Position numbers and translations under genes: made by a program
The notes under the pieces: model-generated
Database searches by the model: none
What the model was told of the DNA's origin: nothing
The model's input: only the letters and a program-made list of their open reading frames with translations
Origin: a virus
Taxonomy: Duplodnaviria > Heunggongvirae > Uroviricota > Caudoviricetes
IMG/VR virus record: IMGVR_UViG_3300021426_000080
Coordinates: 27,744-91,743 of that record
DNA length: 64,000 nt
Reading direction: 5' to 3' (one strand)
Shown here: positions 5,408 to 51,988 of the stretch, in pieces
How positions within the stretch are numbered: position 1 is the first letter of the stretch
Layout: each line of letters opens with the position of its first letter

Positions 5408-5427
5408 TCTGGAAATGAGGTGATTTT

Positions 5428-11496: not shown

Positions 11497-11532
11497 GACA
11501 GGGATTCGCAAAAATTACAATCGATATAGTAG

Positions 11533-11598
11533 AGAGACGTGGTGTAACAGGTAACATACCAAAAACGGAGATTGTAGGTTCAAGTCCTACCGTCTTTT
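11533..11598 (+). ncRNA. tRNA-like element: acceptor stem + D-arm + T-arm (GGTTCAAGTCC), anticodon arm truncated
   Basis: AGAGACG / CGTCTTT form a 7-bp acceptor stem. D-stem is GTGT/ACAT. Perfect T-arm GTAGG-TTCAAGT-CCTAC. Only 16 nt lie between the D- and T-arms, so it is not a canonical tRNA. Confidence 0.3.
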
Positions 11599-13559: not shown

Positions 13560-14090
13560 ATGAAAACTTACAACTTTAATATTTACAAGTATCACATTAC
13601 CGTGACGATTGAGAAGAAGTCGTATAAGACGGCAGAGGATGAACTTAAGTCTAAAATCGAAGCCATCAATTTGAAATTTGACGAAAAGTATCTAAAACCG
13701 GTAACCGTTGATGAAATTCTTGAATATTGCGGTGTTAAAAAAGATCCAGAAGAAATCAAAATGGAAGAAAAAGCTTCAGATTTATGCGTCCTGGAAGCAG
13801 CCGAAAAGTATATTCAGGCCAAACGAGGCAAACTGGCAGATTCGACAAGAAAAGGCTATATGAATATTGTCGACAATCATCTTAGCGGCATTTGGTTATA
13901 CAGACTTGACAGACTTACCGAAGAGCATCTTCAGGAAGCTTTTGATGCGGAAATTGCAAAAGGTCTCAGCGTGAAGACTCTGAAAGGCTATAGAACATTT
14001 ATCATGAAGGTTCTTGCCGAGTATTGTCCGGACTTTCATCCGAACATTCGTGTAACCAAGGAGGGTGTAAATGAAACTCCCAAAACCTAA
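13560..14090 (+). CDS. integrase N-terminal SAM-like (core-binding) domain protein lacking catalytic domain (truncated integrase paralog)
   Basis: AEKYIQAKRGKLADSTRKGYMNIVDNHLSGIWLYRLDRLTEEHLQEAF..KGLSVKTLKGYRTFIMKVLAEY matches the integrase core-binding domain pattern. No RHRY catalytic residues. Overlaps the int start by 20 nt. Confidence 0.5.
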   Translation: MKTYNFNIYKYHITVTIEKKSYKTAEDELKSKIEAINLKFDEKYLKPVTVDEILEYCGVKKDPEEIKMEEKASDLCVLEAAEKYIQAKRGKLADSTRKGYMNIVDNHLSGIWLYRLDRLTEEHLQEAFDAEIAKGLSVKTLKGYRTFIMKVLAEYCPDFHPNIRVTKEGVNETPKT

Positions 14091-15123
14091 ACAACTTAAA
14101 TCCGGTAATTGGAGAATACAGATCCAAATTAATGGAGAGCGATATTCTCGCACTGGAGCCACAAAGAAAGAAGCTCTTGAGAAAGCTAAGCAAGTTATCG
14201 CTGGCATTGAAGCGGAAAAACGTATTCCTTTGACTCTCGGTAAGGCCATTGACAAATATATTGAAGCTAAGACCGCAGTTCTTTCGCCATCAACCATTCG
14301 CGGATATAAGTCAGTTAGGAGAAATTATTTTCCGAATATTATTGATAAGAATATTTCAGACCTGACCCAGTCAGATATTCAGTTTGCCATGAGTTCGCTC
14401 GCAGCAAAAGGACTATCCCCGAAAACGATCAAAAATGCTCATGGTCTTCTCAATTCTACTTTTGAAATGTTCAGACCAAATTTTACGCTGAGAACAAGAC
14501 TTCCGAAGAGTCAGAAAACCGAAATGCGGATATTCTCTGAAGCTGAAATGAAGAAAGTTTTTGAAGCTGCAAAAGGTGATACATATGAAATTACGATTTT
14601 GCTTGCTGCATGGCTCGGCCTTCGAATGGGTGAGGTCAGAGGCTTGAAGTACGGCGATCTTAAAGATGGAAGACTTCATGTTCATACTACAATTGTTCGC
14701 GATTCAAACGGCAAAGACGTCGAAAAGAGCACAAAGACTACCTCTGGAGACCGCTATATTAAATGCCCAGGAGCAATTCAACATCTGATCGTGGTGAGAA
14801 GGTTAGAGCTTGAAAATTCCGGTATGAATAAAAAGGATATTTCTAAGACTTACGTTTGCCCATGGAAAGATAATACAATCTACAAAAACTTTATCCGGAT
14901 CTGTAAGAAGGCTGGAGTTGAGCCTTGTAGATTCCACGATCTTAGACATTTTATGGCAAGCGAAGGGCATGCTCTTGGAATTCCGAACAAGTATCTGACG
15001 AAACGTATGGGGCATAAGACTGAACATATGCTTCAGAATGTTTATCAGCATACGATTAGCGATATGGTTGATGAATTCGATTCTCTGATTGACGAAAAAA
15101 TGGAGAAATTGTATAATGAATAA
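14071..15123 (+). CDS. int: tyrosine integrase (site-specific recombinase)
   Basis: RBS AAGGAGGG. Arm-binding N-terminus SGNWRIQIQINGERYSRTG. Catalytic residues LRMGEVRGL (Arg), HDLRHF (His-x-x-Arg), GHKTEHMLQNVYQHT (Tyr). Confidence 0.85.
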   Translation: MKLPKPKQLKSGNWRIQIQINGERYSRTGATKKEALEKAKQVIAGIEAEKRIPLTLGKAIDKYIEAKTAVLSPSTIRGYKSVRRNYFPNIIDKNISDLTQSDIQFAMSSLAAKGLSPKTIKNAHGLLNSTFEMFRPNFTLRTRLPKSQKTEMRIFSEAEMKKVFEAAKGDTYEITILLAAWLGLRMGEVRGLKYGDLKDGRLHVHTTIVRDSNGKDVEKSTKTTSGDRYIKCPGAIQHLIVVRRLELENSGMNKKDISKTYVCPWKDNTIYKNFIRICKKAGVEPCRFHDLRHFMASEGHALGIPNKYLTKRMGHKTEHMLQNVYQHTISDMVDEFDSLIDEKMEKLYNE

Positions 15124-17944: not shown

Positions 17945-17953
17945 TATTTTGGA

Positions 17954-17979
17954 TTCGCAAAATATTCAACTCCTATAAT
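17954..17979 (+). promoter_or_regulatory. phage promoter motif TTCGCAA-N13-TATAAT
   Basis: TTCGCAAAATATTCAACTCCTATAATGGAG. Confidence 0.55.
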
Positions 17980-18023
17980 GGAGAGTTTGACTAACTCGAA
18001 ATTAATAAAAAGGGGTTGTAGTA

Positions 18024-22474: not shown

Positions 22475-22741
22475 ATGTGCAAATACTGTAAGCAAATCAT
22501 GCCAGACTATGACGATGATGAATTTGAAGATCTTATTCAAATTCCAGTCGTTCATGGCATCGGAGATTTTGTTACACACGCAGATGACGAATGTCGCGAC
22601 GAAATTGATATTTGTATAGAAGATGAAAAATTGGCCGTTTTCGTATGGCTTGGCGGAGATTGCGAGATGGTAGCAAGCCTTCCAATCGAATACTGCCCGG
22701 TTTGCGGCCAGAAACTCAGTGATTTTATTTCGCAAAAATAA
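22475..22741 (+). CDS. zinc-ribbon protein (88 aa)
   Basis: RBS GAAAGGAGAA. CKYCKQ...CPVCGQ. Confidence 0.45.
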   Translation: MCKYCKQIMPDYDDDEFEDLIQIPVVHGIGDFVTHADDECRDEIDICIEDEKLAVFVWLGGDCEMVASLPIEYCPVCGQKLSDFISQK

Positions 22742-22784
22742 CAGCTTCTTTAATAGAAGATATTAAATTATGGAGGTAATGTTT

Positions 22785-23084
22785 ATGAACGAACGGAAGT
22801 ATGTTGTTATTGCATCGTATGCGCTTTCCGGGGCATTTATGATGAATCTTCTTGGCATTGCGAATTGCTGGCCACAGGCTTTCCGGCTTATCGACGGATG
22901 CGACTACAAGAAAGTCGTAGATGAAGAAGTAGACGGAGCTTGGTCTGAGTATCGCATCCCAAGTAAGAGTTTTAGCACAGAAAGCAACGGAAAAGTATCG
23001 TATACTGAAACGCATGATTTCAAATGCGAAGACGATTCAGAGGCAATGGAGACTTCAGTGATGTTTACTATCTTCGAATACTAA
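22785..23084 (+). CDS. hypothetical protein with N-terminal hydrophobic segment
   Basis: RBS GGAGG 8 nt upstream of ATG 22785. Confidence 0.4.
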   Translation: MNERKYVVIASYALSGAFMMNLLGIANCWPQAFRLIDGCDYKKVVDEEVDGAWSEYRIPSKSFSTESNGKVSYTETHDFKCEDDSEAMETSVMFTIFEY

Positions 23085-23090
23085 GCATAA

Positions 23091-23120
23091 AGGAGCTTGT
23101 AATTCACAGGCTCCTTTATA
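23091..23120 (+). terminator. rho-independent terminator
   Basis: AGGAGCTTGT-AATTC-ACAGGCTCCT followed by a T-rich run. Confidence 0.55.
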
Positions 23121-23140
23121 TTTTTTGAAAGGAGAACCGA

Positions 23141-23539
23141 ATGGGCAGAAAATCTAATAAGGAAACATGGAACGAACGTCGGAAATCTCTATTCGTAAAA
23201 GATTTAATGGAACATGCCAGCTTTACTCCCGCTATAGCAGCAGATTATCTTGGCATATCAGAAAACTCTTTTAATTGCAAATTGCATCGCGATAGCTGGT
23301 CTGTTGGCGATCTACAACTGCTCGCATACGCATCTGGGCTTCAATTATGGGCGGTGGATAAAAACGGTCTTCTTTGGAAATCTCTTTCCCTAGAACATTG
23401 GTATCCAGCGGACGCGGAGCAAGTCGATGCGATTCGAAAAAGATACGATGATGAACGAATTAAACAAAAACGCGAGGAATATGAAACGTTAAAGCAAACT
23501 CTGGCAGCGATGAAAGAAACATATGGATTTGAAAATTGA
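23141..23539 (+). CDS. putative HTH DNA-binding protein (132 aa)
   Basis: RBS GAAAGGAGAA. HTH-like TPAIAADYLGISENSFNCKLH. Confidence 0.45.
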   Translation: MGRKSNKETWNERRKSLFVKDLMEHASFTPAIAADYLGISENSFNCKLHRDSWSVGDLQLLAYASGLQLWAVDKNGLLWKSLSLEHWYPADAEQVDAIRKRYDDERIKQKREEYETLKQTLAAMKETYGFEN

Positions 23540-23949
23540 AAGGAGAACTAAACATGAGCAACGACCATGTGATCGATGAAAGAAAAGACGCAATGAAGAG
23601 AGCAGTAGATCTGATTACCGATATGTCGGTTAACGGAGCTACACAGGAGGAACTAGAGCGGGCTATTTTGTGGTCTGCCGATGTCGTTCGTGCCGGAAGG
23701 GAAGATATCGACTGGAAGCAGTCGTATGAGGACTATGCGATTGTTGATCTGGAAGATAAGTATCAGGGAGCGGATCTTAGCGAGTACGACAAAGACTACC
23801 TGGTTATTGATGAAACTTATCGCAGTCCGCGCGGTGATGTCGGAAGAGGACTCATGATTGCCGGTTTCGACACACGAGAAGAAGCTGAGGCTCTTGTTAA
23901 AGAAATGAATAGTCCGAATCTTGTTATTCTGGGACCGAAACAGAAGTAA
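23536..23949 (+). CDS. hypothetical protein (137 aa)
   Basis: RBS GAAAGGAGAA. Confidence 0.45.
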   Translation: MKGELNMSNDHVIDERKDAMKRAVDLITDMSVNGATQEELERAILWSADVVRAGREDIDWKQSYEDYAIVDLEDKYQGADLSEYDKDYLVIDETYRSPRGDVGRGLMIAGFDTREEAEALVKEMNSPNLVILGPKQK

Positions 23950-23967
23950 CGTGGAAGGAGAGTTGTA

Positions 23968-24459
23968 ATGAGCATTTATCAGATCGCAGCGTTTATTGGC
24001 GTTGGTTATATTTTGAAGGATAAAATCGGAAACACATCCACGAGATATTCTCGCAGTAATCCTGTAAAGGATAAAGTATATCAGATTATAACGGATAAAT
24101 TAGATCTGATATTTTATGGAAATTGTCTATGGAGACCGGTGATGTCTGGAAAAACTTTATATGGTTATGGTAATACAACAAGAAGATATTACCCGGTAAA
24201 AGACAACTATCCAATAGTCGATATTTACTTCAACACCAAATTTGAAGCGGAAAATGTTCTCGACAATCTGAGAGAACAAATTGAACGATATAATTTCGTT
24301 TCGGTCGAGGACTATTATCACATGTGCGGAACTATAGGTAAATTTACAGATCGGTATTATGGATGGGAAGATCTTGACGATGCAAAAATTGATTATAAAA
24401 ACGGCCGTTATCATTTGATTTTAACCGCTACGGAAAGACAAGGTGATTTAAATGCTTAA
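23968..24459 (+). CDS. hypothetical protein (163 aa)
   Basis: RBS GGAAGGAGAG. Confidence 0.45.
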   Translation: MSIYQIAAFIGVGYILKDKIGNTSTRYSRSNPVKDKVYQIITDKLDLIFYGNCLWRPVMSGKTLYGYGNTTRRYYPVKDNYPIVDIYFNTKFEAENVLDNLREQIERYNFVSVEDYYHMCGTIGKFTDRYYGWEDLDDAKIDYKNGRYHLILTATERQGDLNA

Positions 24460-24739
24460 ACGAATCATCTGTGCGCTACTCTGCGTGATATTTGCGTTCT
24501 TTCTCATTGGCTGTAATACGAGAACGGAGCGTACGAAATTTGAACGAGTAGATGAGAAACCGCAGCAACCGGTCTCAATGTTTATTGTCATCGAAGGAGG
24601 CGGACTTGACTCATATCGAATCGTATATCATCGCGATACTAAAGTCATGTACGCTGTTTCCACCGGTACCTATAATAGTGGAAATTTTACGGCGCTGCTC
24701 AATCCTGATGGAAGTCCGATGCTTTGGGAGGGAGATTAA
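24452..24739 (+). CDS. small lipoprotein (95 aa) - candidate superinfection-exclusion factor
   Basis: Signal peptide with lipobox: MLKRIICALLCVIFAFFLIGC. Confidence 0.5.
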   Translation: MLKRIICALLCVIFAFFLIGCNTRTERTKFERVDEKPQQPVSMFIVIEGGGLDSYRIVYHRDTKVMYAVSTGTYNSGNFTALLNPDGSPMLWEGD

Positions 24740-25255
24740 ATGATTCCATGCCCGAATGCTTATGATATTTTACTTCGGACCATTATGGATCCTGTTGACA
24801 GAGATTATCTGGAAAGTTTCATTGGGCGCATATGCCTCGGAGATTACGACAGTGTTCCTAAATATACTGTGCTTTACGGAAAGGCAGGTACCGGGAAATC
24901 AACGATCTTAAATGCCTTGGTTCGGATATTCGGAGAAGGTAAAATTTCTTACGGCGCTGAAATGGCTAAACTTGCGCATTCTCCGATTATTATTATCCAA
25001 GACGGTAACGTAGATAAAATCGTTGATGAAACTAATAATGATTATTCGCTTAATAAAACTAAGTTCTTTATTGCGACAAACAAACTTCCAAATTATTGGG
25101 AACCGACTGCTCGCGTTTTATGTATGACCGGAGAAAGAATTCCCGTTAAGATATTTATGAATCTAATTTTGCCAAGTCTCTGGGAAATGGTGATCCCATA
25201 TAAGCAGTATTGTATCGATAAAGTATGCGAATATCTGAAAGTAAAAGGAGAATAA
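24740..25255 (+). CDS. P-loop NTPase, stand-alone paralog of the replicase SF3/D5-like helicase core
   Basis: VLYGKAGTGKSTILNALVRIFGEG...IIIQDGNVDKIVDET...FFIATNKLP aligns with the replicase segment VFYGDSGTGKSTILDIIAKMFKG...AIQQDGDLSKIEDN...LFMGTNKPV. Confidence 0.55.
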   Translation: MIPCPNAYDILLRTIMDPVDRDYLESFIGRICLGDYDSVPKYTVLYGKAGTGKSTILNALVRIFGEGKISYGAEMAKLAHSPIIIIQDGNVDKIVDETNNDYSLNKTKFFIATNKLPNYWEPTARVLCMTGERIPVKIFMNLILPSLWEMVIPYKQYCIDKVCEYLKVKGE

Positions 25256-25258
25256 ATC

Positions 25259-25708
25259 ATGAGCTTTAATCTTAATTATTGGCTTAAAGAAACCGTTGAT
25301 ATTGATGCGGTTCGTGTTCCTGGAGTAACAGCATTTCAGAAAGTTCGTCCAAGAATTGCCTGTAATGATGGGTTTTCTGTATCAGTCCAAGCAAGTGAAT
25401 TCACATACTGTCACCCCAGGTATACACAGTGGCAGAACGAGGACGGATGGCAGGTTATTAATGGCGAATACTGGTTATCGAGCGAAACTCCAAGGAATTT
25501 CGAAACGGATCATTATACACCGTACGAATCTGTCGAGCTTGGATTTCCTTCAGAAGAGGACGAACTTATCAACAAATATGCTGAAGGTGACGATTATACT
25601 AACACTGTTTATGGCTATGTTCCGGTTGATATTGTCGAGAAACTCATTGAAAAACATGGTGGGTTTAAAGGCGTTGATAGAAGCAATAAGAAAGGAGAAA
25701 ACCAATGA
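25259..25708 (+). CDS. hypothetical protein (149 aa)
   Basis: RBS AAAGGAGAA. Confidence 0.45.
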   Translation: MSFNLNYWLKETVDIDAVRVPGVTAFQKVRPRIACNDGFSVSVQASEFTYCHPRYTQWQNEDGWQVINGEYWLSSETPRNFETDHYTPYESVELGFPSEEDELINKYAEGDDYTNTVYGYVPVDIVEKLIEKHGGFKGVDRSNKKGENQ

Positions 25709-25983
25709 ACAAACCATTTGTAATTACTGAAGATGAGTACAACAATGACAAAATGGATTTTGGTAAGAAGGAATTTATTGTTTACGACAATGTATGCACG
25801 CCTCCAATCACTTTGTATACCCTTGACGACAAAAAAATGGAAGGTTTCATCGGCAAAGAACTTCTGACGAAAGCCAGAGAAATGGCGCCAGATGAAAGAA
25901 TGTATGTTAGAAATCCTGAGATGGAAATGGATGTGGAGCTTCTCAGAGCGGAAGGAGACTATTGGAGGAAACTTGAATGGTAA
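25705..25983 (+). CDS. hypothetical protein (92 aa)
   Basis: RBS AAAGGAGAAAA. Overlapping start. Confidence 0.45.
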   Translation: MNKPFVITEDEYNNDKMDFGKKEFIVYDNVCTPPITLYTLDDKKMEGFIGKELLTKAREMAPDERMYVRNPEMEMDVELLRAEGDYWRKLEW

Positions 25984-26156
25984 TTCATAAGTGCGATATT
26001 TGCGGAAAGGAAATGGGTGTTTGGTTCAAGGTAGTATTAACTGTTGAATCTTTGCATCCGGAAACAAACGTCGCAGATATTATTCATCTGCAAGGGACGA
26101 CGGAGATTTGTAAAGATTGTTATCTGTCGCGAATGCCGAAAGGAGAAACTGAATGA
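25977..26156 (+). CDS. small zinc-ribbon protein (59 aa)
   Basis: CDICGK...CKDCY. ATG overlaps the upstream stop. Fills the gap between the track ORFs. Confidence 0.35.
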   Translation: MVIHKCDICGKEMGVWFKVVLTVESLHPETNVADIIHLQGTTEICKDCYLSRMPKGETE

Positions 26157-26389
26157 GCATGAGCGAAGAAGTCGTTTTTGTTAGGCAAAAACAAATCTGC
26201 GAGATTATTCTGAATAATCTATTTTCGGAAGATACTAATAGATTCTTTGAAAATTGCGAATTCTCTTCAGATCGAATGGCTTTTATGCAAGGAATGAATT
26301 ATGCTGCATTACTTTGTAACACAAAGCTTGATCAGTATCCTGTATTAATAACGGTCAGAGATAACGGAGAAAAGGAGAATAAAAAATGA
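26153..26389 (+). CDS. hypothetical protein (78 aa)
   Basis: RBS AAAGGAGAAA. Confidence 0.45.
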   Translation: MSMSEEVVFVRQKQICEIILNNLFSEDTNRFFENCEFSSDRMAFMQGMNYAALLCNTKLDQYPVLITVRDNGEKENKK

Positions 26390-27204
26390 GTATTAAAATT
26401 GAAAATACACAGGTTTTCGGCTGGGAGGCAGCTATCAGAGGCTGCAGAAATCCAATGAATTCCTGGGAGAAGTCGGATAGTTGGTTTTTGGAATGGCAGG
26501 AAGAAGGCGCTTACTATTACCGTGATCTTATTCCGAACGATGATTATTATGATCACTGTTCCGACGATCCTGATGACAAAGAAATATTCCGCGAACGAAT
26601 TAAACACAACAAAGATAAAACCATATTGATTGGCCCCAACGACCATAAGCTCCTCATGAACCTCTGCAAGGGAGGAACTGAGGAGGCAAAATGGAGACGC
26701 ATGGTTCATGTTCAGATGGATGTGACAGCTCCTCTTTATTGGTGGAAGGAATTCGAGACGTACAAGGTCGGAACTGTCAGCAACTCCTGCAGCACAATGC
26801 ATAAGATTCAAGCGAAAGAATTTACACTGGATGATTTTTCGTGTGAACATCTTTTTGTATATTCTAACGCAGATGTTTACTCATTTGCTGATATTGGATC
26901 AAATCAAAATCAGGATGGGCGCTTATTTTCAATGGATCTTCTTGAGTTGACAATAAAAGCTCTAAACTATTACCGTACCAAATTTCTCGAAACTAAAGAT
27001 AAGAAATATTGGTACCAGATGATCCAGCTTTTACCTAGCAGCTATAACCAGAAGCGGACAATCGATCTGAACTATGAGGTCCTGGCAGCGCAATATCGGC
27101 AGAGAAAGGATCATAAACTTCAGGAATGGTTGGACTATTGCTCTTTTATAAAAAGTTTGCCGTACAGTGAATTCATTACATTGGAGGATAAAAATGAAAA
27201 ATGA
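26386..27204 (+). CDS. ThyX (flavin-dependent thymidylate synthase)-like protein, divergent (RHR motif not evident)
   Basis: N-terminus AAIRGCRNPMNSWEKSD resembles the ThyX A.R.C..S segment. VGTVSNSCSTMH resembles the ThyX S..S..SxR block. The expected RHR is replaced by KEFETYK. Confidence 0.35.
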   Translation: MSIKIENTQVFGWEAAIRGCRNPMNSWEKSDSWFLEWQEEGAYYYRDLIPNDDYYDHCSDDPDDKEIFRERIKHNKDKTILIGPNDHKLLMNLCKGGTEEAKWRRMVHVQMDVTAPLYWWKEFETYKVGTVSNSCSTMHKIQAKEFTLDDFSCEHLFVYSNADVYSFADIGSNQNQDGRLFSMDLLELTIKALNYYRTKFLETKDKKYWYQMIQLLPSSYNQKRTIDLNYEVLAAQYRQRKDHKLQEWLDYCSFIKSLPYSEFITLEDKNEK

Positions 27205-27818
27205 TAGATTATTCTATAATTGGTAAAAGATTTGGCCATCTAACCGTATTAGGTTTAGATCATATTACAGAAAGACATAATACATATTGGCTATGTCAAT
27301 GCGATTGTGGAAATAAAACGGTTGTGTATAGAGGCGGATTAACATCTGGCGATACCATTTCATGCGGTTGTTATCATAAAGAACATCATCATGAATATGG
27401 ATTTAAGCACGGTTTAACTGGAACACCTTTATACACGACATGGTGTGGAATGAACAATCGATGTCGAAATGAAAATGCTGGTAACTATGAACGGTATGGA
27501 GGACGTGGAATATCGGTATGTGATGAATGGAAGAATAATTTTATAGCATTTCATGATTGGGCTTTATCTCACGGTTATAAAGAAGGACTATCGCTAGACA
27601 GAATTAATAATGACGGCGATTATGAACCGGATAATTGTCGTTGGGCAACAAGAAACGAACAGCAAAACAATAGACGAAATAGCCATTATTTTACATATAA
27701 TAATGAAACGCATACTATAGCAGAGTGGGGGCGTATATTAAATGTAAAAGACAATTTACTAAATTATAGAATTAGTAAAAATAATTATATGGACTTCGAA
27801 CGATATTTTAAAATATAG
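27201..27818 (+). CDS. HNH homing-type endonuclease
   Basis: LSLDRINNDGDYEPDNCRWATRNEQQNN matches the HNH (H-N-N) motif. Cys/His cluster upstream. The gene is markedly AT-rich. Confidence 0.65.
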   Translation: MIDYSIIGKRFGHLTVLGLDHITERHNTYWLCQCDCGNKTVVYRGGLTSGDTISCGCYHKEHHHEYGFKHGLTGTPLYTTWCGMNNRCRNENAGNYERYGGRGISVCDEWKNNFIAFHDWALSHGYKEGLSLDRINNDGDYEPDNCRWATRNEQQNNRRNSHYFTYNNETHTIAEWGRILNVKDNLLNYRISKNNYMDFERYFKI

Positions 27819-28046
27819 GTGAGGGACAAAATAGTGGTTACAGGACAAGAAATTATTGACTTCATTCGTAACTGTAAGCTCGAAGACACGCCAATCACCA
27901 GAACATGTGATGAACTTATATTTTCAAAACGTCTTAATACTGGAAATGGAACTTACGAGGAAACAAGTCTGCAGTTAAATCTTCAATCAGGAATGTACTA
28001 CAAGGTCAATCATTCGAGAAAGGTTTATGAGTATATGGAGGAATGA
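27819..28046 (+). CDS. hypothetical protein (GTG start)
   Basis: Track ORF. The start is uncertain. Confidence 0.35.
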   Translation: MRDKIVVTGQEIIDFIRNCKLEDTPITRTCDELIFSKRLNTGNGTYEETSLQLNLQSGMYYKVNHSRKVYEYMEE

Positions 28047-28357
28047 TGGTAATAGAAAATGTGTCATTTGCTGAACTTGAATATGAAAACGACATAGTAT
28101 TTGTTCCTCACATATTTAAAGGCGATCATGATAACGGTCTTATTGCAAAATTTATAGATTATTTTGGATTATTGAATCTGGGCCCCGATTCTAGATTTTT
28201 AGACGGAGGACCTATGAGAATTCTTTGCACCGGAGACACGTACCGCTACACAATACCCTTTAAAATTGAAGAATTTTGTAGAGACAATAATTATAAATAT
28301 AGTTTTAAACAGCACAAACGTGATAGTTCAGTTCGTAGATTATATCAAAGACTTTGA
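28043..28357 (+). CDS. hypothetical protein (104 aa)
   Basis: ATGA overlap. Confidence 0.4.
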   Translation: MMVIENVSFAELEYENDIVFVPHIFKGDHDNGLIAKFIDYFGLLNLGPDSRFLDGGPMRILCTGDTYRYTIPFKIEEFCRDNNYKYSFKQHKRDSSVRRLYQRL

Positions 28358-28380
28358 ATTGTTACGATGGAGGACAATTG

Positions 28381-28728
28381 ATGCAGCATTTTGATCGTTT
28401 TATAGAATTAGACAAACTTGTCAGGAAAAGTCTGATTATCTATGGGTCAGAGTGGCAAATCAAAGGAGCTTATATTCACAATGAAAGTGAGTTTAGGCTC
28501 CTTTCTAATTATTTTGCCATAGGTAAGACATATGAAGGTCAAATCGAAATTGCCAATAATTATTTTAGGGGAGAACCTGACTGGTATTTCTTAGAAGGTG
28601 AAGATGGAGGAATAGACTATCCAGCGACATGGAACTTTCAAACGCTATCCGAACGTAAGGCAGAATTTCAAAAGTTCTGCGACCATCTTAAAGAATTAGA
28701 AAAACAAATGAGTAATTCGAAGAGCTAA
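28381..28728 (+). CDS. hypothetical protein (115 aa)
   Basis: RBS GGAGG 7 nt upstream of ATG 28381. Confidence 0.4.
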   Translation: MQHFDRFIELDKLVRKSLIIYGSEWQIKGAYIHNESEFRLLSNYFAIGKTYEGQIEIANNYFRGEPDWYFLEGEDGGIDYPATWNFQTLSERKAEFQKFCDHLKELEKQMSNSKS

Positions 28729-28745
28729 AAACTGGAGGAAGAAAA

Positions 28746-29087
28746 ATGATTGACACAAGCACCAAATCAGCCTTGGTTAAGAAAGAAGTTGTTATTCAGA
28801 GAGACTATATCTGTGACGTTTGTAAGAAACCGTTTCTATCCTGGGGCTATTCAGATGCGGGAATACTCGAAACCTTAAATGGAACTCCTTATCATGGGAG
28901 AAGAGGCATAAAATGGTTTATAGTCACAACCCATCATTCCGACTGGGGAAACGACTCGGTAGACAGTTTCGAGAATAAGCACGTTTGTTCGGCCGAATGC
29001 CTTAGAAAGGCTTTTGAAGATTATCTAGCCAATGATGTTCGGGAGTGCAGAACTGCTTGTTTTGAAGTTGAAGAAAAGACCGACTGA
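28746..29087 (+). CDS. Cys-containing hypothetical protein (113 aa)
   Basis: RBS CTGGAGGAAG. Confidence 0.45.
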   Translation: MIDTSTKSALVKKEVVIQRDYICDVCKKPFLSWGYSDAGILETLNGTPYHGRRGIKWFIVTTHHSDWGNDSVDSFENKHVCSAECLRKAFEDYLANDVRECRTACFEVEEKTD

Positions 29088-29107
29088 TTTTAGAAGGAGG
29101 AAACTTA

Positions 29108-29794
29108 ATGGCAGAATTTGTACAATCAAAAATGACAGTAATTCAACCAGACGGAACTATACTCGGATCTCCGGAGTCTCTTGAAAAATATTGGAATGAA
29201 TACTGCAACGCCCCTAAAGATGACTGTTGGTGCATTAAAGAACCATTTCTGATGTTTCCGAAAGGAACTAATGATAGCGAAATCTGTGAATGGTTTAACA
29301 AAATGTATCCGGGTGGTCTTTTAGAACTAACGAGAAAAAGGCAAATTAAAAGGTTTGGTGAAGACTATGTTAAAACTTGGGAGAAGATTGGAAAACGAAT
29401 GCGTTCGGCGGGTGCCTCATATTTTCTGAGTACCCCGCCCGATCTTGCTAGAACTCGTGAACTTCAAGCAAATCTTCGTGGACAAAGAGCATTTCTTCAA
29501 CCGGTCGATGATGCAGCTTGTTTAACAGAAGAAGTTATGCAAAAAGTTAAAGAAGGCGTTTATCGCGGCCCGTTTGAAGAATTTTATCCGACACTTCGAG
29601 AGCACGGCGCTGAACCAAAAGCTCTTGAAACATTCTGGAATGAGCTTGGTGATATTTCGGTGGACGATGACGGGATCATTCAGGAGTCATTCCTCTGGTG
29701 GCCAAAAGGAACTGATCGAGAGGATATTTGGCATTGGTTTGATGAAAAGTATCCTGGCGGAGTTGCGAAACTTATGGGATTGGAGGAAAACTAA
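29108..29794 (+). CDS. protein with two copies of a ~50-aa F(L/F)xWPKGT...DIxxWF(D/N)xKYPGG domain
   Basis: RBS AGAAGGAGGAAA. Internal duplication visible in the translation. A third copy is encoded by 30062..30223. Confidence 0.5.
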   Translation: MAEFVQSKMTVIQPDGTILGSPESLEKYWNEYCNAPKDDCWCIKEPFLMFPKGTNDSEICEWFNKMYPGGLLELTRKRQIKRFGEDYVKTWEKIGKRMRSAGASYFLSTPPDLARTRELQANLRGQRAFLQPVDDAACLTEEVMQKVKEGVYRGPFEEFYPTLREHGAEPKALETFWNELGDISVDDDGIIQESFLWWPKGTDREDIWHWFDEKYPGGVAKLMGLEEN

Positions 29795-29796
29795 AG

Positions 29797-30078
29797 ATGC
29801 TTCAGAGAATTTGTGATCGTTGTGGAAAAATAATTCAATCTGGACTTAATTTAAAAATTGACGTAAAAAATTGTGAATTACCATCGGACATGTGTCTAGT
29901 GCACCTTGATATTGGTCCTTTCCGAACCGGTGTTCAAGGCGACGGAAATGTTAAGCGAAGAGTTATAAATCCAAGTGAGACTAAACAATATGAACTCTGT
30001 AAAGCTTGTAAAGATGAATTGATGTCATGGCTGACTAAATATGAAAAGTTGGAGGACAAAAATGACAAATTACAGTGA
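29797..30078 (+). CDS. zinc-ribbon protein (93 aa)
   Basis: CDRCGK...CKACKDE. Confidence 0.45.
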   Translation: MLQRICDRCGKIIQSGLNLKIDVKNCELPSDMCLVHLDIGPFRTGVQGDGNVKRRVINPSETKQYELCKACKDELMSWLTKYEKLEDKNDKLQ

Positions 30079-30223
30079 AGTAAAAAAGTTCTTGTATGAA
30101 GTTCCGACTGATATTGCCGGACGAATCAAAGAAGAGTTCTTTGGATGGCCGAAGGGAACTAAGGTAAGTGATATCGAGAAGTGGTTTGACAAAAAAGCAA
30201 GGGGTGAGAGCACAAGAAAATGA
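30062..30223 (+). CDS. small protein = third copy of the WPKGT...WFDKK domain
   Basis: RBS TTGGAGGACAAAA. EEFFGWPKGTKVSDIEKWFDKKARG. Confidence 0.4.
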   Translation: MTNYSEVKKFLYEVPTDIAGRIKEEFFGWPKGTKVSDIEKWFDKKARGESTRK

Positions 30224-30495
30224 CTTATTATACGATGTTTTTGGCGCACACCGCTTTGATGAATGAGTTTAATATAGCTCAGAAGCAACTCGCAGCAGTC
30301 AATAAAAAACTTAAAGAAGCCGCTGAAAGAGATAAAGCATTCTTAAGAGACCCTTTCGGAGATCCTATGCTAAATACGGAGTATGAGGATTTTCAGAAAA
30401 AAGTTATGAATCTTCGCGCAATTGAACTTGGATTATCTAAAAAGGCAGAAGAGCTAGCTGACGCTATAGCCGATTTTGATAAACACAACTGGTAA
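30220..30495 (+). CDS. hypothetical protein (91 aa)
   Basis: ATGA overlap. Confidence 0.4.
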   Translation: MTYYTMFLAHTALMNEFNIAQKQLAAVNKKLKEAAERDKAFLRDPFGDPMLNTEYEDFQKKVMNLRAIELGLSKKAEELADAIADFDKHNW

Positions 30496-30507
30496 AGGAG
30501 ATAAATT

Positions 30508-31152
30508 ATGCCTATTACAACAGTGATAATCATTTCTCTGCTTCTTGCGAATCTTGCGTTAACTCTCATTATGTTCTGGATCGTTTATGATTTGCTGTCC
30601 GCTGTGAAGTCACTCCAGGATATGGAAGAGTTGTCCAAGCATGCTTTTGATTTATGCTATGATCAGATTACCGATTATAGCAATACTATTAAAAAATTGT
30701 TCGCTCACGTACATGAAATATGCGGTTCGATTAAAACCAGATATGATGCTGTCTGCGATGCTTACAAGCTTATGAGAGGAGAATATGATTCAATAGTCGA
30801 TATGAATAGAAAGCTTCTCGAATGCTGGAAAGGTTGCGAAGAGAGATATTCACAGAGTTATGAGGAGTTTAAGCATTGTTCAGATTCATTGAAGGAAATA
30901 AGTTATCAGATTACAGATCTGGCTAATGTTTCGACAGAAGATGAGTATACGCTTACCTTAAACGAAGCATGTGATACAGTATGCATCGAATGCCCGTTCG
31001 GCGGATCGAAGTGCAATGATTGCCCGGTATGGAAGATTCAACACGGAAATGAAGACGAAGGAGATGAAACGCCGGTGGATCCTGAAGCCATGGAGGAATT
31101 CTTCGAGATGGATGCCTTTAAGGATGGGCAAGAAAAAAGCGGTGCTTCGTGA
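30508..31152 (+). CDS. membrane-anchored Cys-rich protein (214 aa)
   Basis: RBS AAAGGAGATAAATT. N-terminal TM ITTVIIISLLLANLALTLIMFWIVY. Cys cluster CIECPFGGSKCNDCPVW. Confidence 0.45.
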   Translation: MPITTVIIISLLLANLALTLIMFWIVYDLLSAVKSLQDMEELSKHAFDLCYDQITDYSNTIKKLFAHVHEICGSIKTRYDAVCDAYKLMRGEYDSIVDMNRKLLECWKGCEERYSQSYEEFKHCSDSLKEISYQITDLANVSTEDEYTLTLNEACDTVCIECPFGGSKCNDCPVWKIQHGNEDEGDETPVDPEAMEEFFEMDAFKDGQEKSGAS

Positions 31153-31187
31153 TTTACTGCATTGTATTTTTAAAAGAAGAAAAGTAA

Positions 31188-31493
31188 ATGAACGAACTTA
31201 TCGATTATACAAAACAAATACTGGATGATATCAAGAAAACGTCTGGTAAAACAATAGATGATATCATCGTTAAGATCCTCGAACAAAATGGGCTTTCGAT
31301 CGAAGATGTTATTGAGCATCCGGATGATTTTCGGCTATGGGAGTTTCCTTCTACTTGCACCCCATTCGGAATAACACAACGCGCCGAGTTATATTACAAA
31401 GATTCATATATTGGATCCTATTTACTTCGGATGGATATGGACGATGATAGAAAAACATATACAATTCGTGCTGGATATTTAGTAAAAGAATAG
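31188..31493 (+). CDS. hypothetical protein (101 aa)
   Basis: Track ORF. Confidence 0.4.
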   Translation: MNELIDYTKQILDDIKKTSGKTIDDIIVKILEQNGLSIEDVIEHPDDFRLWEFPSTCTPFGITQRAELYYKDSYIGSYLLRMDMDDDRKTYTIRAGYLVKE

Positions 31494-31520
31494 AAATAAT
31501 AAATAAAAAGGAGATTAAAA

Positions 31521-32501
31521 ATGTTCGCAATTATATTTTCAGTTATTCTCATTCTCGCAGGTATTGCCGCAGGACGTATTATTCCGGTTCTGCGAGATGA
31601 AGAATCCGGTAAAAAGTTTACACCGTGGCCTCTTTTGCCCGCAGTTGCGATTTCAATGGCTTTGTTTATTGTTAGCTGCATTGCTATCGTACCAACCGGA
31701 TATACTGGAATTCTGACAACATTTGGCAAAGTTGAAGATCGAACCGTTGGATCCGGCATTAACTTCATCGCGCCCTGGCAGGAAGTAGTGAAAATGGATA
31801 ACCGTATTCAGAAGCAGGAGTTTGAATCGGCAGCATTTTCAAGCGATCTTCAGGAAGCCTCTTATGCGGTAACTATTAACTACAGCATCGATCAGACAGC
31901 GGCCCGTGATATTTATAAGACTGTCGGAACAAATTACTACGAAACGGTTATGTTTGGACCGATTCAGGACAATATCAAGACAATATTTGCGAAGTATACT
32001 GCAGAAAGCCTAATCGGGAATCGTGATGTTCTCTCGCAGAAAGTTACGGGCAGTGTCGCCGCCGATATGAGTCGTTACGGAATTAATGTTGTGTCCATCG
32101 CCATTCGTGATATTGACTTTACTGATACGTTTACTAATGCGGTTGAAGCAAAGCAGGTAGCAGCTCAGAATAAACTGAAGGCCGAAACTGAGCAGGCCCA
32201 GAAGACGATGGAAGAAGAGCAGACGGCAAAACGAGCGATTATTGCAGCAAATGCGGAGGCTGAAAAGGCGGTTATTGCGGCTAATGCAGATCTCGAAGTT
32301 GTGAAGGTCCAGGCCGAGGCTGCTCTTTATGCCGGCGAGAAGGAAGCCGAAATGAATAAGCGTATCGGTGAATCTCTTAACGGAAATGTTATTGACTATT
32401 ACTGGATCAAGCAGTGGGACGGTAAACTTCCGACGACTGTTCTTGGAGATGGGAATGATTATATTCTCGATCTTGGAAGCATAACTAATGCGGAGGAATA
32501 A
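31521..32501 (+). CDS. SPFH / band-7 (prohibitin/HflK-like) membrane protein
   Basis: RBS AAAAAGGAGATTAAAA. N-terminal TM. SPFH core GYTGILTTFGKVEDRTVGSGINFIAPWQEVVKMDNRIQ...INVVSIAIRDIDFTDTFTNAVEAKQVAAQ. C-terminal coiled coil. Confidence 0.7.
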   Translation: MFAIIFSVILILAGIAAGRIIPVLRDEESGKKFTPWPLLPAVAISMALFIVSCIAIVPTGYTGILTTFGKVEDRTVGSGINFIAPWQEVVKMDNRIQKQEFESAAFSSDLQEASYAVTINYSIDQTAARDIYKTVGTNYYETVMFGPIQDNIKTIFAKYTAESLIGNRDVLSQKVTGSVAADMSRYGINVVSIAIRDIDFTDTFTNAVEAKQVAAQNKLKAETEQAQKTMEEEQTAKRAIIAANAEAEKAVIAANADLEVVKVQAEAALYAGEKEAEMNKRIGESLNGNVIDYYWIKQWDGKLPTTVLGDGNDYILDLGSITNAEE

Positions 32502-33176
32502 ATGCGCATTATAGATAAGAATACCGATTTTTATGATTATCTACAAAACATTTATATTGATAAAACAATAACGTTTGACAGAACCGATTCGTATTTACTC
32601 ACGAAAGAAATCATGTGCGATAATATGAAATATGTTAACGAACCAGGAGATATTGTCTTTTTGCTGATGCAAGTGTGTAATAAATTTTGGCTATTCAGAA
32701 TAACTGTTACAGAAGTAACCAAATGGAACACGCCAAAAAAGTATCAAATCGAACTGATTTTTTCATGGGACAATTACGACAAAAAGCGTGAACTGATTCA
32801 ATTGGCTTTTATTCGATTCGGAATCAGCATATATCGTAGTGCATTAGACACTTCTAAATTGCATACGTCTGAAGCCTTTAAAAGATCTGACGTTCTCGTA
32901 AATGCTATCAACACTAATGATTATAATGCTTACGATAATATTACGGCGCATGCTTTTTATAATAATGGCGCTAAAACGGTTAAACATATACCAATTCTGA
33001 AGGCGTGCGGCATTGCAGATTTTATTGAACCGCTTGAGATCTATCTGGCATTCGAAGAATATTTCATGCTGGAAAAATCGTCAGGTGAACGAACCGAGTC
33101 AGTCGGACTTACCGACAAAGAAAAAATAGGAAATCACGGCTTTGATATTAAGTCGTCGTTTCGAAATATTAAATAA
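32502..33176 (+). CDS. hypothetical protein (224 aa)
   Basis: ATGA-type overlap with the SPFH gene. Confidence 0.45.
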   Translation: MRIIDKNTDFYDYLQNIYIDKTITFDRTDSYLLTKEIMCDNMKYVNEPGDIVFLLMQVCNKFWLFRITVTEVTKWNTPKKYQIELIFSWDNYDKKRELIQLAFIRFGISIYRSALDTSKLHTSEAFKRSDVLVNAINTNDYNAYDNITAHAFYNNGAKTVKHIPILKACGIADFIEPLEIYLAFEEYFMLEKSSGERTESVGLTDKEKIGNHGFDIKSSFRNIK

Positions 33177-33195
33177 TATAAAGGAGATTAAACAA

Positions 33196-33549
33196 ATGAA
33201 CGAGAAAGAATTTAGAGAGTACGTATACGAGCAGAGGAGACAGGGCAGATCTGATAGCCAGATTGCGAGAAGCCTTGGTATGAGTCTTGCTCATTTTATG
33301 GGACGACTCAACGGCGTAGATGTTGATAAGATCGATCCGCCGAAGAAGACAAACGCAGAGATGGCCAAAGATCTTGGTATCAAAGAAGCTCCGGTTCGTC
33401 CTGTCCAGAAACCGGAAGTAAAGCCCGTATCCGGAGCCAAGCAGCCTGAAAAGTACGAAAACCACAAGAAAGAAAAAGTTTCCGAAGCTTCTAAGATTGA
33501 GGAGCCTAAGGACAAAAAGAAAACCGAAGATCTCAGCTGGATGGAGTAA
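33196..33549 (+). CDS. HTH DNA-binding protein with lysine-rich tail (117 aa)
   Basis: RBS AAGGAGATTAAACAA. HTH RSDSQIARSLGMSLAHF. Confidence 0.45.
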   Translation: MNEKEFREYVYEQRRQGRSDSQIARSLGMSLAHFMGRLNGVDVDKIDPPKKTNAEMAKDLGIKEAPVRPVQKPEVKPVSGAKQPEKYENHKKEKVSEASKIEEPKDKKKTEDLSWME

Positions 33550-33575
33550 TTCGCAATAATTACAGCTCCTATAAT
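33550..33575 (+). promoter_or_regulatory. phage promoter motif TTCGCAA-N13-TATAAT
   Basis: TTCGCAATAATTACAGCTCCTATAATGAAAGGAG. Confidence 0.55.
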
Positions 33576-33591
33576 GAAAGGAGTTGGTCTT

Positions 33592-33825
33592 ATGAAATGT
33601 TATCTAGTTATAGTAAAGGCATGGACCGAACGAGGTCGGCTTGTAATGAATAACGTGCTAAAGATTTTCTTTAATAAAAATAATGCCGAAAAATTTATTA
33701 AAGAAACCTGGCCAGAAGCTCATTACAGGAAAGATGATCGTGGCGAATGCTACGTAATTGAACCGGACGAATATTCATGGGATACGCATTATTTCATTAG
33801 AGAAATGAACATAGAGGACTTGTAA
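33592..33825 (+). CDS. hypothetical protein (77 aa)
   Basis: RBS GAAAGGAG. Confidence 0.4.
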   Translation: MKCYLVIVKAWTERGRLVMNNVLKIFFNKNNAEKFIKETWPEAHYRKDDRGECYVIEPDEYSWDTHYFIREMNIEDL

Positions 33826-33850
33826 CTTACAGGTCCTCTAAATTTTATAT
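33814..33850 (+). terminator. terminator hairpin GAGGACTTGT-AACTT-ACAGGTCCTC (repeat of 36224..36256)
   Basis: 10-bp stem followed by TAAATTTTATATTT. Overlaps the gene end (…EDL*). Confidence 0.55.
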
Positions 33851-49851: not shown

Positions 49852-50874
49852 ATGAAAGGTACTACTATCGCATTCGCAGCACTCGGACTTATTGATATTG
49901 GTATGATCGTTCTCGATCGTGCCGCAAATCGTCATGGCAGAAAGCTCGCTGAAGCTGAGGCAATCAAGAATCGCGGCGAAGAGGCCAATGCTGTTCTAGA
50001 GGAAGTTAAGAAGCGCTGCGATGCCTATGATGAGCTAATCAAGCGTGAGAAGGTGGAATTCAAGCAGAAGAGAGCTGATTGGCTCGAAGCAAATGCGTTC
50101 AACGCCAAGAAGAAAGATATTCTTGATGGCGTTCCGAATGGTCTCAACGAATTCAAGAAACAGATTGGATATTCTGATGTAATTCAGAGACTTACGGACG
50201 AATACAATGCCGGTGTCGAAGCCGTCAAGAACTCCATTGACTATGACGTAAACAAGAAGAAGTTTGAGAAAGCTATCGCCGATGCCAAGAGCCATTATGA
50301 CAGTCAGAAGGCGCTGTATGACTGTGCCGGCTCTGATATTTCTGATGATGCTATGAAGCTCAGACATGCTGCAGAAGAGGCCATGAATGCCAAGATCAAA
50401 GAGGCTAAGGCAAACCTTGATATTCTTGAGGGCAAGCTTAACGCTGAAGTCGAGAAGCTTACTCAGGTAAAGCAGAATGGCATTCGTGAACTCGAGGAGA
50501 AGATCGCGAAGGAGAAGATTCGTCTGGATCACAAGGCTGACCAGGAGCTCGAGGCACTGAACACAAAGCTCTCTGAAGCAGAACAGGATATTAACAATGC
50601 CATCCTGAATAAGCGGACCGGCGCGGATGCTGAAGCGGAGATTAATCACGCCGATGATATTCGTATCATCCGTGAGCAGAAGAAAGTTGATGCCAAGGCT
50701 GCGGAAGATATTTTCAATGCAAAGCCTGAGACCGTCAAGATTGCAGAATTCCTGAAGGGCCACAAGGTTCCGAAAGTGGTTGTGCCCATGTTCGGTGTTG
50801 TTAGCATGGCGCCTGTTGGATATTTGTCCTATCGCTGGCTCAAGTTCCTTGGGCAGATCATGAGGGCGATGTAA
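49852..50874 (+). CDS. membrane protein with long coiled coil and N- and C-terminal TM helices (340 aa)
   Basis: Leader TTGATATTTTGAACTCTTGAAAGGAGAACTGAAAAC then ATG. N-terminal TM IAFAALGLIDIGMIVL. C-terminal VVPMFGVVSMAPVGYL. Confidence 0.5.
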   Translation: MKGTTIAFAALGLIDIGMIVLDRAANRHGRKLAEAEAIKNRGEEANAVLEEVKKRCDAYDELIKREKVEFKQKRADWLEANAFNAKKKDILDGVPNGLNEFKKQIGYSDVIQRLTDEYNAGVEAVKNSIDYDVNKKKFEKAIADAKSHYDSQKALYDCAGSDISDDAMKLRHAAEEAMNAKIKEAKANLDILEGKLNAEVEKLTQVKQNGIRELEEKIAKEKIRLDHKADQELEALNTKLSEAEQDINNAILNKRTGADAEAEINHADDIRIIREQKKVDAKAAEDIFNAKPETVKIAEFLKGHKVPKVVVPMFGVVSMAPVGYLSYRWLKFLGQIMRAM

Positions 50875-51860: not shown

Positions 51861-51988
51861 AAGTACTTTGTGGAGCGGTTGGCGTATCAATTATATTTGC
51901 AACTGGATTCGTAGCAGGTGTCATTGCTGGTATTGCCATCGCTATGACTCCGGACGCGAAAGATTCGGTATCGGAGGATAAGCAATGA
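51857..51988 (+). CDS. small membrane protein (43 aa)
   Basis: RBS AAGGAGGATGCGGA. TM VGVSIIFATGFVAGVIAGIAIAM. Confidence 0.35.
   Translation: MKVLCGAVGVSIIFATGFVAGVIAGIAIAMTPDAKDSVSEDKQ

Follow-up and report, generated by a model that had tools for sequence, protein, structure and literature searches.

A stand-alone SPFH/Band 7 gene of the prohibitin branch in a 64-kb phage sequence from the gut Clostridia

The stretch of DNA analysed here, referred to as the window, is the 64,000 nucleotides from position 27,744 to position 91,743 of the IMG/VR virus record IMGVR_UViG_3300021426_000080, a member of the Caudoviricetes. It carries a gene for a membrane protein with an SPFH/Band 7 domain (the SPFH gene, Table 1). 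The long start of this gene, which includes the first of two N-terminal hydrophobic helices, is supported because a Shine-Dalgarno sequence lies 7 nt before the first ATG. A start further downstream, which would make the second helix an N-terminal signal peptide, was rejected, since this strong Shine-Dalgarno sequence serves the first ATG and the sole internal methionine, M46, is 7 residues before the cysteine in that helix.

The Pfam family Band_7 (PF01145) matches residues 56-228 with E=2.8e-36 and scores 125.6 bits, where the gathering cut-off is 23.6; profile positions 2-174 of 176 are covered. In a phmmer search of PDB sequences, the matches include prohibitin 1 and 2 (E=3.3e-19 to 2.5e-15) and QmcA (E=5.7e-11), with no HflK/C, stomatin, or flotillin chain at E<=0.001. 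The scores for the equivalog families are all below their cut-offs, at 28.5 bits against 159.4 for HflK (TIGR01933), 28.2 against 134.4 for HflC (TIGR01932), and 25.6 against 700 for FloT (NF058507). When the predicted fold is compared with the PDB using Foldseek, 66 chains match at E<=0.001 and the top ones are all SPFH proteins. The human prohibitin complex 8rrh comes first (E=5.8e-16, with prohibitin chains at ranks 1-6), then stomatin, HflK/C, erlin, QmcA, and flotillin, with the major vault protein also among the matches after the SPFH proteins. All of these families form rings or cages. An earlier note, made from the sequence alone, had called the gene a prohibitin-like SPFH/Band 7 protein and had named PF01145 as the family to look for; the Band_7 match, the PDB sequence matches, and the fold matches bear this out. 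The protein belongs to the prohibitin branch of the SPFH proteins and is not an orthologue of HflK/C or of flotillin.

There are 4445 database relatives of the protein at E<=1e-10, and its assignment among the PHROG families is to phrog_200 (E=4.7e-55), which is labelled 'lipoprotein' in the category 'other'. The ratio of non-synonymous to synonymous substitution rates (dN/dS) against the closest orthologue, in the sister phage locus L001, is 0.065 at a near-saturated dS of 1.48; this ratio is usable in three orthologue pairs only, as dS is saturated in most others. Mean column identity is 68% in an alignment of 33 homologues. The gene is under strong purifying selection. Its GC content is 0.45, compared to 0.39 for the local block. 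No second SPFH copy was found in the 64-kb window by tblastn or with the family hidden Markov model across all six frames. The gene stands alone in this phage, and within the SPFH/Band 7 superfamily it falls in the prohibitin branch.

A single-chain AlphaFold2 (AF2) model, built on the alignment of 33 sequences, has strands and helices forming an alpha/beta core at residues 54-200, followed by a single helix of 83 residues (203-285) in which Ala, Glu, Lys, and Gln make up 60% of the sequence. The 'C-terminal coiled coil' of the earlier note matches this one predicted helix, which aligns to the helical region of the prohibitins and is the equivalent of the helices that form the walls of SPFH cages. 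Confidence, as the predicted local distance difference test (pLDDT), is 70-84 in the SPFH core and below 50 for residues 280-326. After the long helix there is a set of invariant columns (Y293, Y294, I296, K297, Q298, W299, G301, P304, T306, and L308) within the motif YYWIKQWDGKLPTTVL, which is disordered in the monomer model. By comparison with the solved SPFH cages, it is inferred that this motif forms inter-subunit contacts or a cap.

At the N-terminus there are two hydrophobic segments, at about residues 1-24 and 36-57 (Kyte-Doolittle 15-residue window >1.6), which are modelled as helices at 2-24 and 38-52 and are kept across the 33 aligned homologues; past residue 70 the Kyte-Doolittle maximum is 1.06 and there is no hydrophobic segment. 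The single 'N-terminal TM anchor' described previously therefore stands as regards a membrane anchor at this end, but not as a single transmembrane (TM) segment, as the anchor has the form of a two-helix hairpin with a charged linker and a lipobox-like cysteine. The second helix is the canonical prohibitin anchor, since residues 23-227 of PHB1 align to residues 50-256 of the query. The linker varies from 5 to 45 amino acids among the homologues, and over 116 of them it has a mean of 3.7 K+R and 3.1 D+E. Ahead of helix 1 there is no N-tail at all, and the K/R residues are concentrated in the linker.

Helix 2 holds the lipobox-like I-V-S-C, with the codon for Cys53 at 31677-31679. A cysteine is found 4 residues ahead of the sequence VPTG[YF]TG, itself invariant in the relatives, in 113 of the 116 homologues, and about 109 of these have S, A, or G at -1. 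Phage N4 gp20 is also assigned to phrog_200; its lipoprotein signal, MYKYIAVAIAGLIIALS-LTSC, is of the textbook kind, and the cysteine there is in the same register relative to the start of the SPFH domain. A lipoprotein was taken to have a signal peptide ending in the lipobox [LVI][ASTVI][GAS]C, with the cysteine within about the first 35 residues; Cys53 of the window protein is behind another TM helix and is followed by the hydrophobic stretch IAIV, and some members of the broader family have no cysteine here. With helix 1 directly after Met1 and K/R in the linker, the positive-inside rule would place the N-terminus outside, the linker in the cytoplasm, and the SPFH domain outside. The lipobox-like [S/A/G]-Cys at the end of the second helix, in register with the lipobox of N4 gp20, likewise makes an outward SPFH domain likely. 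By this rule and this analogy the domain probably faces outward, that is, it is extracytoplasmic, although confidence in the topology is only moderate because the net charge of the linker is near neutral.

That the gene is phage-encoded, as was claimed previously, is confirmed by PHROG matches elsewhere in the window to an endolysin, a tyrosine integrase (phrog_1, E=2e-55), a primase-polymerase (phrog_4210, 1795 bits), and a helicase, and the primase-polymerase shares 52.9% identity, across its whole length, with the polymerase of Faecalibacterium phage FP_oengus. At the 5' end of the window there are large proteins that match phage-only PHROGs. The genes of the window are all on the + strand and its GC skew is steadily positive. 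A nucleotide megablast of the 16 kb around the gene (window 24-40 kb) gave no match among 50,697 phage records, which means that this phage had not been catalogued before. Across 185,579 species genomes, a scan found 43 relatives of the protein, all in metagenome-assembled genomes (MAGs) of Oscillospiraceae, Ruminococcaceae, Lachnospiraceae, and other Clostridia from the ruminant and human gut, and for this reason the host of the window phage is most likely a monoderm gut Clostridium.

Table 1. Features of the SPFH gene, its product, and the surrounding window (positions are those of the window)
Feature	Position	Strand	Basis and remarks
CDS, 326-aa prohibitin-family SPFH/Band 7 membrane protein	31521..32501 (including stop codon)	+	Open reading frame (ORF) list; ATG start
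Shine-Dalgarno sequence AAGGAG	31508..31513	+	Read from sequence; 7-nt spacer to ATG
Hydrophobic helix 1, residues 2-24	31524..31592	+	Kyte-Doolittle; AF2 helix 2-24; conserved in alignment; no charged N-tail
Charged linker, residues 25-35	31593..31625	+	R25, K31, and K32 inside, R19 just upstream; alignment; putatively cytoplasmic
Hydrophobic helix 2, residues 36-57, canonical prohibitin-type anchor	31626..31691	+	Kyte-Doolittle; Cys census; PHB1 alignment
SPFH/Band 7 alpha/beta core, residues 56-228	31686..32204	+	Pfam envelope; AF2; Foldseek
Long Ala/Glu/Lys/Gln-rich helix, residues 203-285	32127..32375	+	AF2; composition; aligns to prohibitin helical region
Conserved C-terminal motif YYWIKQWDGKLPTTVL, residues 293-308	32397..32444	+	Alignment of 33 homologues
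Nearest upstream promoter-like motif	22726..22759	+	Position weight matrix (PWM) scan; the SPFH transcription unit may start here
Next promoter-like motif downstream	33547..33580	+	PWM scan; closes the motif-free block
First terminator-like hairpin past the SPFH gene, GAGGACTTGTAACTTACAGGTCCTC then a T-rich run	33814..33838	+	Terminator scan; exact second copy at 36224
Multi-domain endolysin	8889-10469	+	PHROG match
Tyrosine integrase	14071-15123	+	phrog_1 match
Primase-polymerase, 1322 aa	57120-61088	+	phrog_4210 match

Several other features of the window were noted. The integrase ORF and the adjacent ORF at 13560-14090, which it slightly overlaps, both match phrog_1 (E=2e-55 and E=6e-8), and may represent one integrase gene that is split or frameshifted, or else two separate genes. 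Rfam calls a tRNA at 11533-11598 (+), with 44.1 bits against a gathering cut-off of 29, which ARAGORN does not report; it is between promoter-like motifs at 11502 and 11603. Just upstream of the replication genes there are three paralogues of phrog_2152, a family of unknown function, within 5 kb (50874-51608, 51985-52797, and 54645-55655). Diverged direct repeats of 120-169 nt with 68-82% identity are present within and between the large tail-region genes (4245-4364, 7533-7652, and 8025-8144; 4780-4948 and 5925-6093), and they suggest that fibre-like proteins here have modules in common.

A recurrent motif, TTCGCAA-N13-TATAAT(GG), has 24 copies on the + strand between 11502 and 62924 and none on the - strand in a PWM scan, where 0.1 would be expected in shuffled sequence; the copies include those at 17951-17984 and 35947-35980 as well as the two in Table 1. 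This looks like the phage's own promoter, as judged from the sequence, and the 14-nt spacing between TTCGCA and TATAAT would mean that a phage-specific sigma factor or RNA polymerase may read it. A generic sigma-70 scan was set aside, since its 37 sites were no enrichment over the 32.9 expected. The longest interval free of the motif is 10.8 kb (22726-33547), with the SPFH gene near its distal end, an arrangement that fits co-transcription of the gene with the non-structural block between the integrase and the replication genes. The 'early' expression of the gene is putative, being read from its position, between the lysis/integration and the replication genes and within this motif-free block.

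Downstream of this block there are two single-gene cassettes (33547-33838 and 35947-36248), each with a promoter-like motif first and an identical 25-nt hairpin, GAGGACTTGTAACTTACAGGTCCTC, last. The hairpin encodes the last residues, E-D-L-stop, of both cassette genes. That the cassette genes at 33.5 and 36.0 kb are paralogues was considered and rejected, as their proteins are otherwise unrelated. The purine-rich 460 bp or so at 34869-35332 are without a + strand ORF, and 8 of the 11 matches to GCAAAGGMW in the window are here, all on the + strand between 34899 and 35292; chance would give about 2.4 over all 64 kb. Candidate roles for this iteron-like array are those of a replication origin, a set of protein-binding sites, or a non-coding RNA. 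In the sister phage L001, a Sigma70_r4 protein is encoded.

Among the 10 genes flanking the SPFH gene, Pfam finds no significant family, and the families matched in PHROG have no known function (phrog_4243 downstream, and phrog_24588 and phrog_4173 at 29108-29794), with in addition a weak helix-turn-helix match. Two genes upstream there is a TM protein (30508-31152), which is kept only in L001. The search for partners combined Pfam and PHROG on the 10 neighbours, all-against-all clustering of ORFs from 52 loci, leaving out 16 high-GC MAG loci with spurious antisense ORFs, and a tblastn comparison of all loci with 14 neighbours from the window. Seven independent contexts have SPFH proteins that are >=60% identical: the window, L001, L002-4, L005-6, L052, L053 (a 147.7-kb contig), and L054 (a 113-kb contig). 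All seven are phage-type arrays of small co-directional genes, with markers such as dUTPase, DUF3310, phage lysozyme, integrase, ERF, T4_Y16D, and GP88. No neighbour is conserved across these seven contexts, and those of the window are shared only with L001, where the phrog_4243-type gene is on the opposite side of the SPFH gene. Since it has no partner and no neighbour common to the seven contexts, the SPFH gene is an autonomous module that is mobile between phage backbones.

In the case of L005, a prophage in an Acutalibacter MAG, the SPFH gene adjoins an integrase/HicAB/repressor module. It is opposite in strand to the repressor and integrase, in the lytic direction, as in the window, where the SPFH gene shares its strand with all of the lytic genes. 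Immediately upstream of it in L005, on the repressor strand, is a gene (4931-5725, -) whose 264-aa product is a predicted lipoprotein (MKKILSILLAVAFLTTLFAC...) and might be a surface or exclusion protein expressed in lysogeny. Among the contigs with SPFH relatives (L053 at 147.7 kb and L054 at 113 kb; P0021, P0024, P0027, and P0046 at 136-148 kb), many are very similar in length, at about 141-148 kb, and there are phage accessory genes, such as those for a CCA-adding enzyme, a radical SAM protein, dUTPase, and reverse transcriptase. These contigs are possibly complete genomes from a family of large temperate gut phages.

A chromosomal copy with about 45% identity is present in five MAGs of Faecousia (Oscillospiraceae), with conserved synteny and with neighbours that, on reading of their translations only, resemble a topoisomerase, MnmA, and a cyclophilin-type peptidyl-prolyl isomerase. 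It has the same helix-linker-helix-[A/S]C layout. In a neighbour-joining tree without bootstrap, the phage-borne copies form a clade apart from the chromosomal ones, with gp21 of Faecalibacterium phage FP_Toutatis on a separate branch. Because the host copy has the same layout and the phage copies are a separate clade, the architecture is a property of the whole Clostridial family, and the phage clade is a branch that diverged from it long ago, not a gene captured recently.

Among the SPFH proteins of known structure, the mitochondrial PHB1/PHB2 (8rrh, 9o9z, 9unl) are closest to the window protein in sequence (E=3.3e-19, query 50-256 to PHB1 23-227) and in fold. They share with it an N-terminal anchor, the SPFH core, and the long helix, and have the SPFH domain on the non-cytoplasmic side, where it probably also is in the window protein; relatives of the latter are labelled 'prohibitin family protein' by NCBI. 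Identity to PHB1/PHB2 is, however, only 23-26%, and the phage-borne protein of a bacterial host has an extra N-terminal helix, a charged linker, and a lipobox-like cysteine. Whereas PHB1/PHB2 is an alternating heterodimer of two paralogues, the window phage has a single SPFH gene, for which the heterodimer partner could be the host's own paralogue. HflK/HflC-FtsH of E. coli (7vhq, 7wi3, 9cz2) controls the stability of lambda CII, which makes it a functional model for phage biology. It has the same fold (Foldseek E about 1e-11 to 1e-9) and an extracytoplasmic SPFH domain, the orientation predicted for the window protein, but the window has no paired K/C genes and the host would be a monoderm Clostridium, not a proteobacterium. 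In the case of QmcA-YbbJ and the other SPFH-NfeD operons (8z5g), there is again a single SPFH gene, and one such gene is enough for QmcA to form a homo-oligomeric cage; the likeness extends to sequence (E=5.7e-11) and fold (E=4.8e-10). However, there is no NfeD among the 10 flanking genes of the window or in the seven related contexts, according to precomputed Pfam matches, and QmcA faces the cytoplasm, opposite to the orientation proposed for the window protein.

The closest catalogued phage homologues are gp21 of FP_Toutatis and its counterpart in Faecalibacterium phage Lelie, both annotated 'prohibitin family protein', with 44% identity over 84% of the query. These have the same TM1-linker-TM2-GISC-VPTGYTG layout, are among non-structural genes upstream of the replication module, and come from phages of the same bacterial host group, but they branch separately from the window clade and have no neighbouring genes in common with it. 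In Escherichia phage N4, gp20 is also a non-structural gene of PHROG 200 in which the SPFH domain starts 4 residues past a cysteine in a lipobox context; identity is 25-26%, and Cys21 of N4 is in a classical N-terminal signal, while the cysteine of the window protein is at 53, behind the added upstream helix. MbpS of Kayvirus and the 'band-7-like membrane proteins' of actinophages, such as LeBron gp49, are likewise phage-encoded proteins with TM and SPFH domains (PMC7150955), although their sequences are distant and MbpS is encoded within a lysis module, which the window gene is not.

With the window protein as the sole query, homologues are found in 304 phage records, including 171 Staphylococcus and 46 Streptomyces phages as well as N4-like coliphages, mycobacteriophages, and rhizobiophages, under the annotations 'prohibitin family protein', 'lipoprotein', 'protease', and 'band-7-like', and 30 clusters match in a viral structure library, giant viruses included. 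SPFH genes in T4-like phages have been listed since 2006 (PMC1524935). Kayvirus MbpS has been discussed in connection with the lysis region (PMC7150955), a role like that of HflC in lysogeny has been proposed for the orf75 moron of CSP3 (PMC10269572), LeBron gp49 is mildly cytotoxic on overexpression (PMC13148394), and the SPFH gene of an N4-like phage has also been discussed (PMC13239085). One further paper, PMC11879866, was rejected as functional evidence, the text match being to 'prohibiting'. The novelty implied by the earlier note was thus overstated. Phage SPFH genes are a well-known kind, of which this gene is an ordinary added member that brings no new principle.

The explanation that best accounts for these observations, and which is judged somewhat more probable than not, is that the gene encodes a hairpin-anchored protein of the prohibitin branch which, with its SPFH domain outside, forms a ring or cage, is transcribed in the lytic direction, and acts on membrane proteins of the host. 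The two N-terminal helices would insert into the cytoplasmic membrane of the host as a hairpin, with the N-terminus outside and the charged linker in the cytoplasm, so that the SPFH domain would be on the outer side of this membrane, like that of the mitochondrial prohibitins, HflK/C, and the lipoprotein N4 gp20. Self-assembly through the long helix and the C-terminal motif would then generate a large ring or cage enclosing a patch of membrane, like every solved SPFH protein, and mixed assemblies with the 45%-identical host paralogue may be possible. Transcription would be in the lytic direction with a non-structural 'early/middle' block, and the targets would be host membrane proteins, with the access of an FtsH-type protease to its substrates perhaps being limited or diverted in the infected cell.

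In phage lambda, FtsH is the target of CIII and degrades CII under the modulating influence of HflK/C. The FtsH-type protease of the host would be the lead candidate for the client because prohibitins and HflK/C cage FtsH-family proteases from the non-cytoplasmic side and because phages are known to target FtsH, but this specific identification, made by analogy, is tentative and on balance doubtful. The suggestion that the phage copy could modulate proteostasis in the manner of HflK/C-FtsH is a reasonable analogy.

There are several points that weigh against this explanation. The monomer model has moderate confidence overall (mean pLDDT 64.6, predicted template modelling score 0.40), and assembly into a ring or cage is proposed from a single-chain model, by homology to the solved cages and from the invariant C-terminal motif. 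The topology comes from the positive-inside rule and from analogy, and is weakened by the near-neutral net charge of the linker; the orientation of the SPFH domain is not uniform across the superfamily, as QmcA of E. coli demonstrates. The link to FtsH is one of analogy only, since the equivalog cut-offs for HflK, HflC, and FloT are missed widely, and neither the window nor the related loci contain anything that would single out FtsH. The expression class of the gene is taken from its position. In the literature on phage SPFH proteins, annotations and speculation were found but no experimentally established function for any of them (PMC7150955, PMC10269572, PMC13239085).

An outward SPFH ring might instead cover or immobilise a membrane component required for entry of the DNA of incoming phages, so that the infected or lysogenic cell is protected from superinfection. 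A probably extracytoplasmic SPFH domain with a lipobox-like cysteine would be suited to such a role, as would the presence of an integrase in the window phage. In N4, the genes run from gp18, annotated 'superinfection exclusion, similar to P22 gp17', through the small membrane protein gp19 to the SPFH lipoprotein gp20, and in L005 the gene adjoins the lysogeny module, beside a lipoprotein gene. However, the L005 gene is on the lytic-direction strand and not that of the repressor, relatives are also present in the strictly lytic phages Kayvirus and N4, there is no defence-family match in PADLOC (only a weak and irrelevant one to 'oxidoreductase', E=0.0049, 14.5 bits), and no SPFH protein is known to exclude phages; exclusion is considered unlikely. 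Less probable again is that a membrane microdomain controls holin triggering or aids the Sec-dependent export of lytic enzymes, as has been proposed for Kayvirus MbpS, the gene for which lies in the interval from the endolysin gene lysK to tgl, which encodes a secreted lytic enzyme, and is next to that for the holin-like MbpV (PMC7150955). The number of Staphylococcus phages among the homologue-bearing records (171 of 304) would agree with a part in lysis or secretion, as would the TM protein two genes upstream in the window, but the latter is not conserved beyond L001, the SPFH gene is 21 kb from the endolysin of the window, none of its neighbours has a lysis-related match, and the seven contexts have no linked lysis gene, save for a distant Phage_lysozyme2 gene in L052.

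From its strong conservation in phages of many unrelated backbones, the protein seems to serve a host-directed function of general use, and this could be the buffering of membrane stress, in which the scaffold would keep the membrane stable under attack by depolarising abortive-infection effectors or under phage-induced stress, for example by recruiting PspA-like repair proteins. SPFH proteins do take part in the membrane-stress responses of Firmicutes, and YdjI of B. subtilis links PspA to the membrane. Against this, an outward SPFH domain, if that is its orientation, would have no contact with cytoplasmic PspA, no linked defence or anti-defence gene and no PADLOC signal were seen, and no experimental precedent was found in the literature, leaving little probability for this role. 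Protection from abortive-infection effectors, as raised in the earlier note, is unsupported, with nothing significant from PADLOC and no linked defence or counter-defence gene in the seven contexts. It is very improbable that the gene is passive cargo, whether as a host moron captured recently and with no specific role for the phage, or because the phage does not encode it at all. Faecousia genomes do have a chromosomal paralogue and the GC content of the gene is somewhat above that of its block, but the phage copies are a clade of their own with only about 45% identity to the chromosomal ones, they recur in >=7 phage backbones under strong purifying selection, and the window is clearly phage.

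A bolder reading, to which only a small probability is attached, is that the phage clade is an unusual class of exported SPFH lipoproteins. After insertion of the hairpin, Cys53 would be lipidated and the hairpin possibly cleaved, leaving a lipid-anchored cage on the outer face of the monoderm host's membrane that would co-assemble with the 45%-identical host prohibitin paralogue and hijack its client, either FtsH or a component needed for phage entry. If true, this would be the first defined function for the large and uncharacterised PHROG 200 family.

SPFH scaffolds are universal membrane organisers and phage copies of them are common. The gene does define a well-conserved, strongly constrained, and phage-specific clade in phages of gut Oscillospiraceae, with a clear paralogue in the host and with a prediction of topology and lipidation that is testable, and this clade would be a reasonable model in which to settle what phage SPFH proteins do. 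Should it be true that they control FtsH or phage entry, this would bear on lysis-lysogeny decisions and on competition among gut phages.

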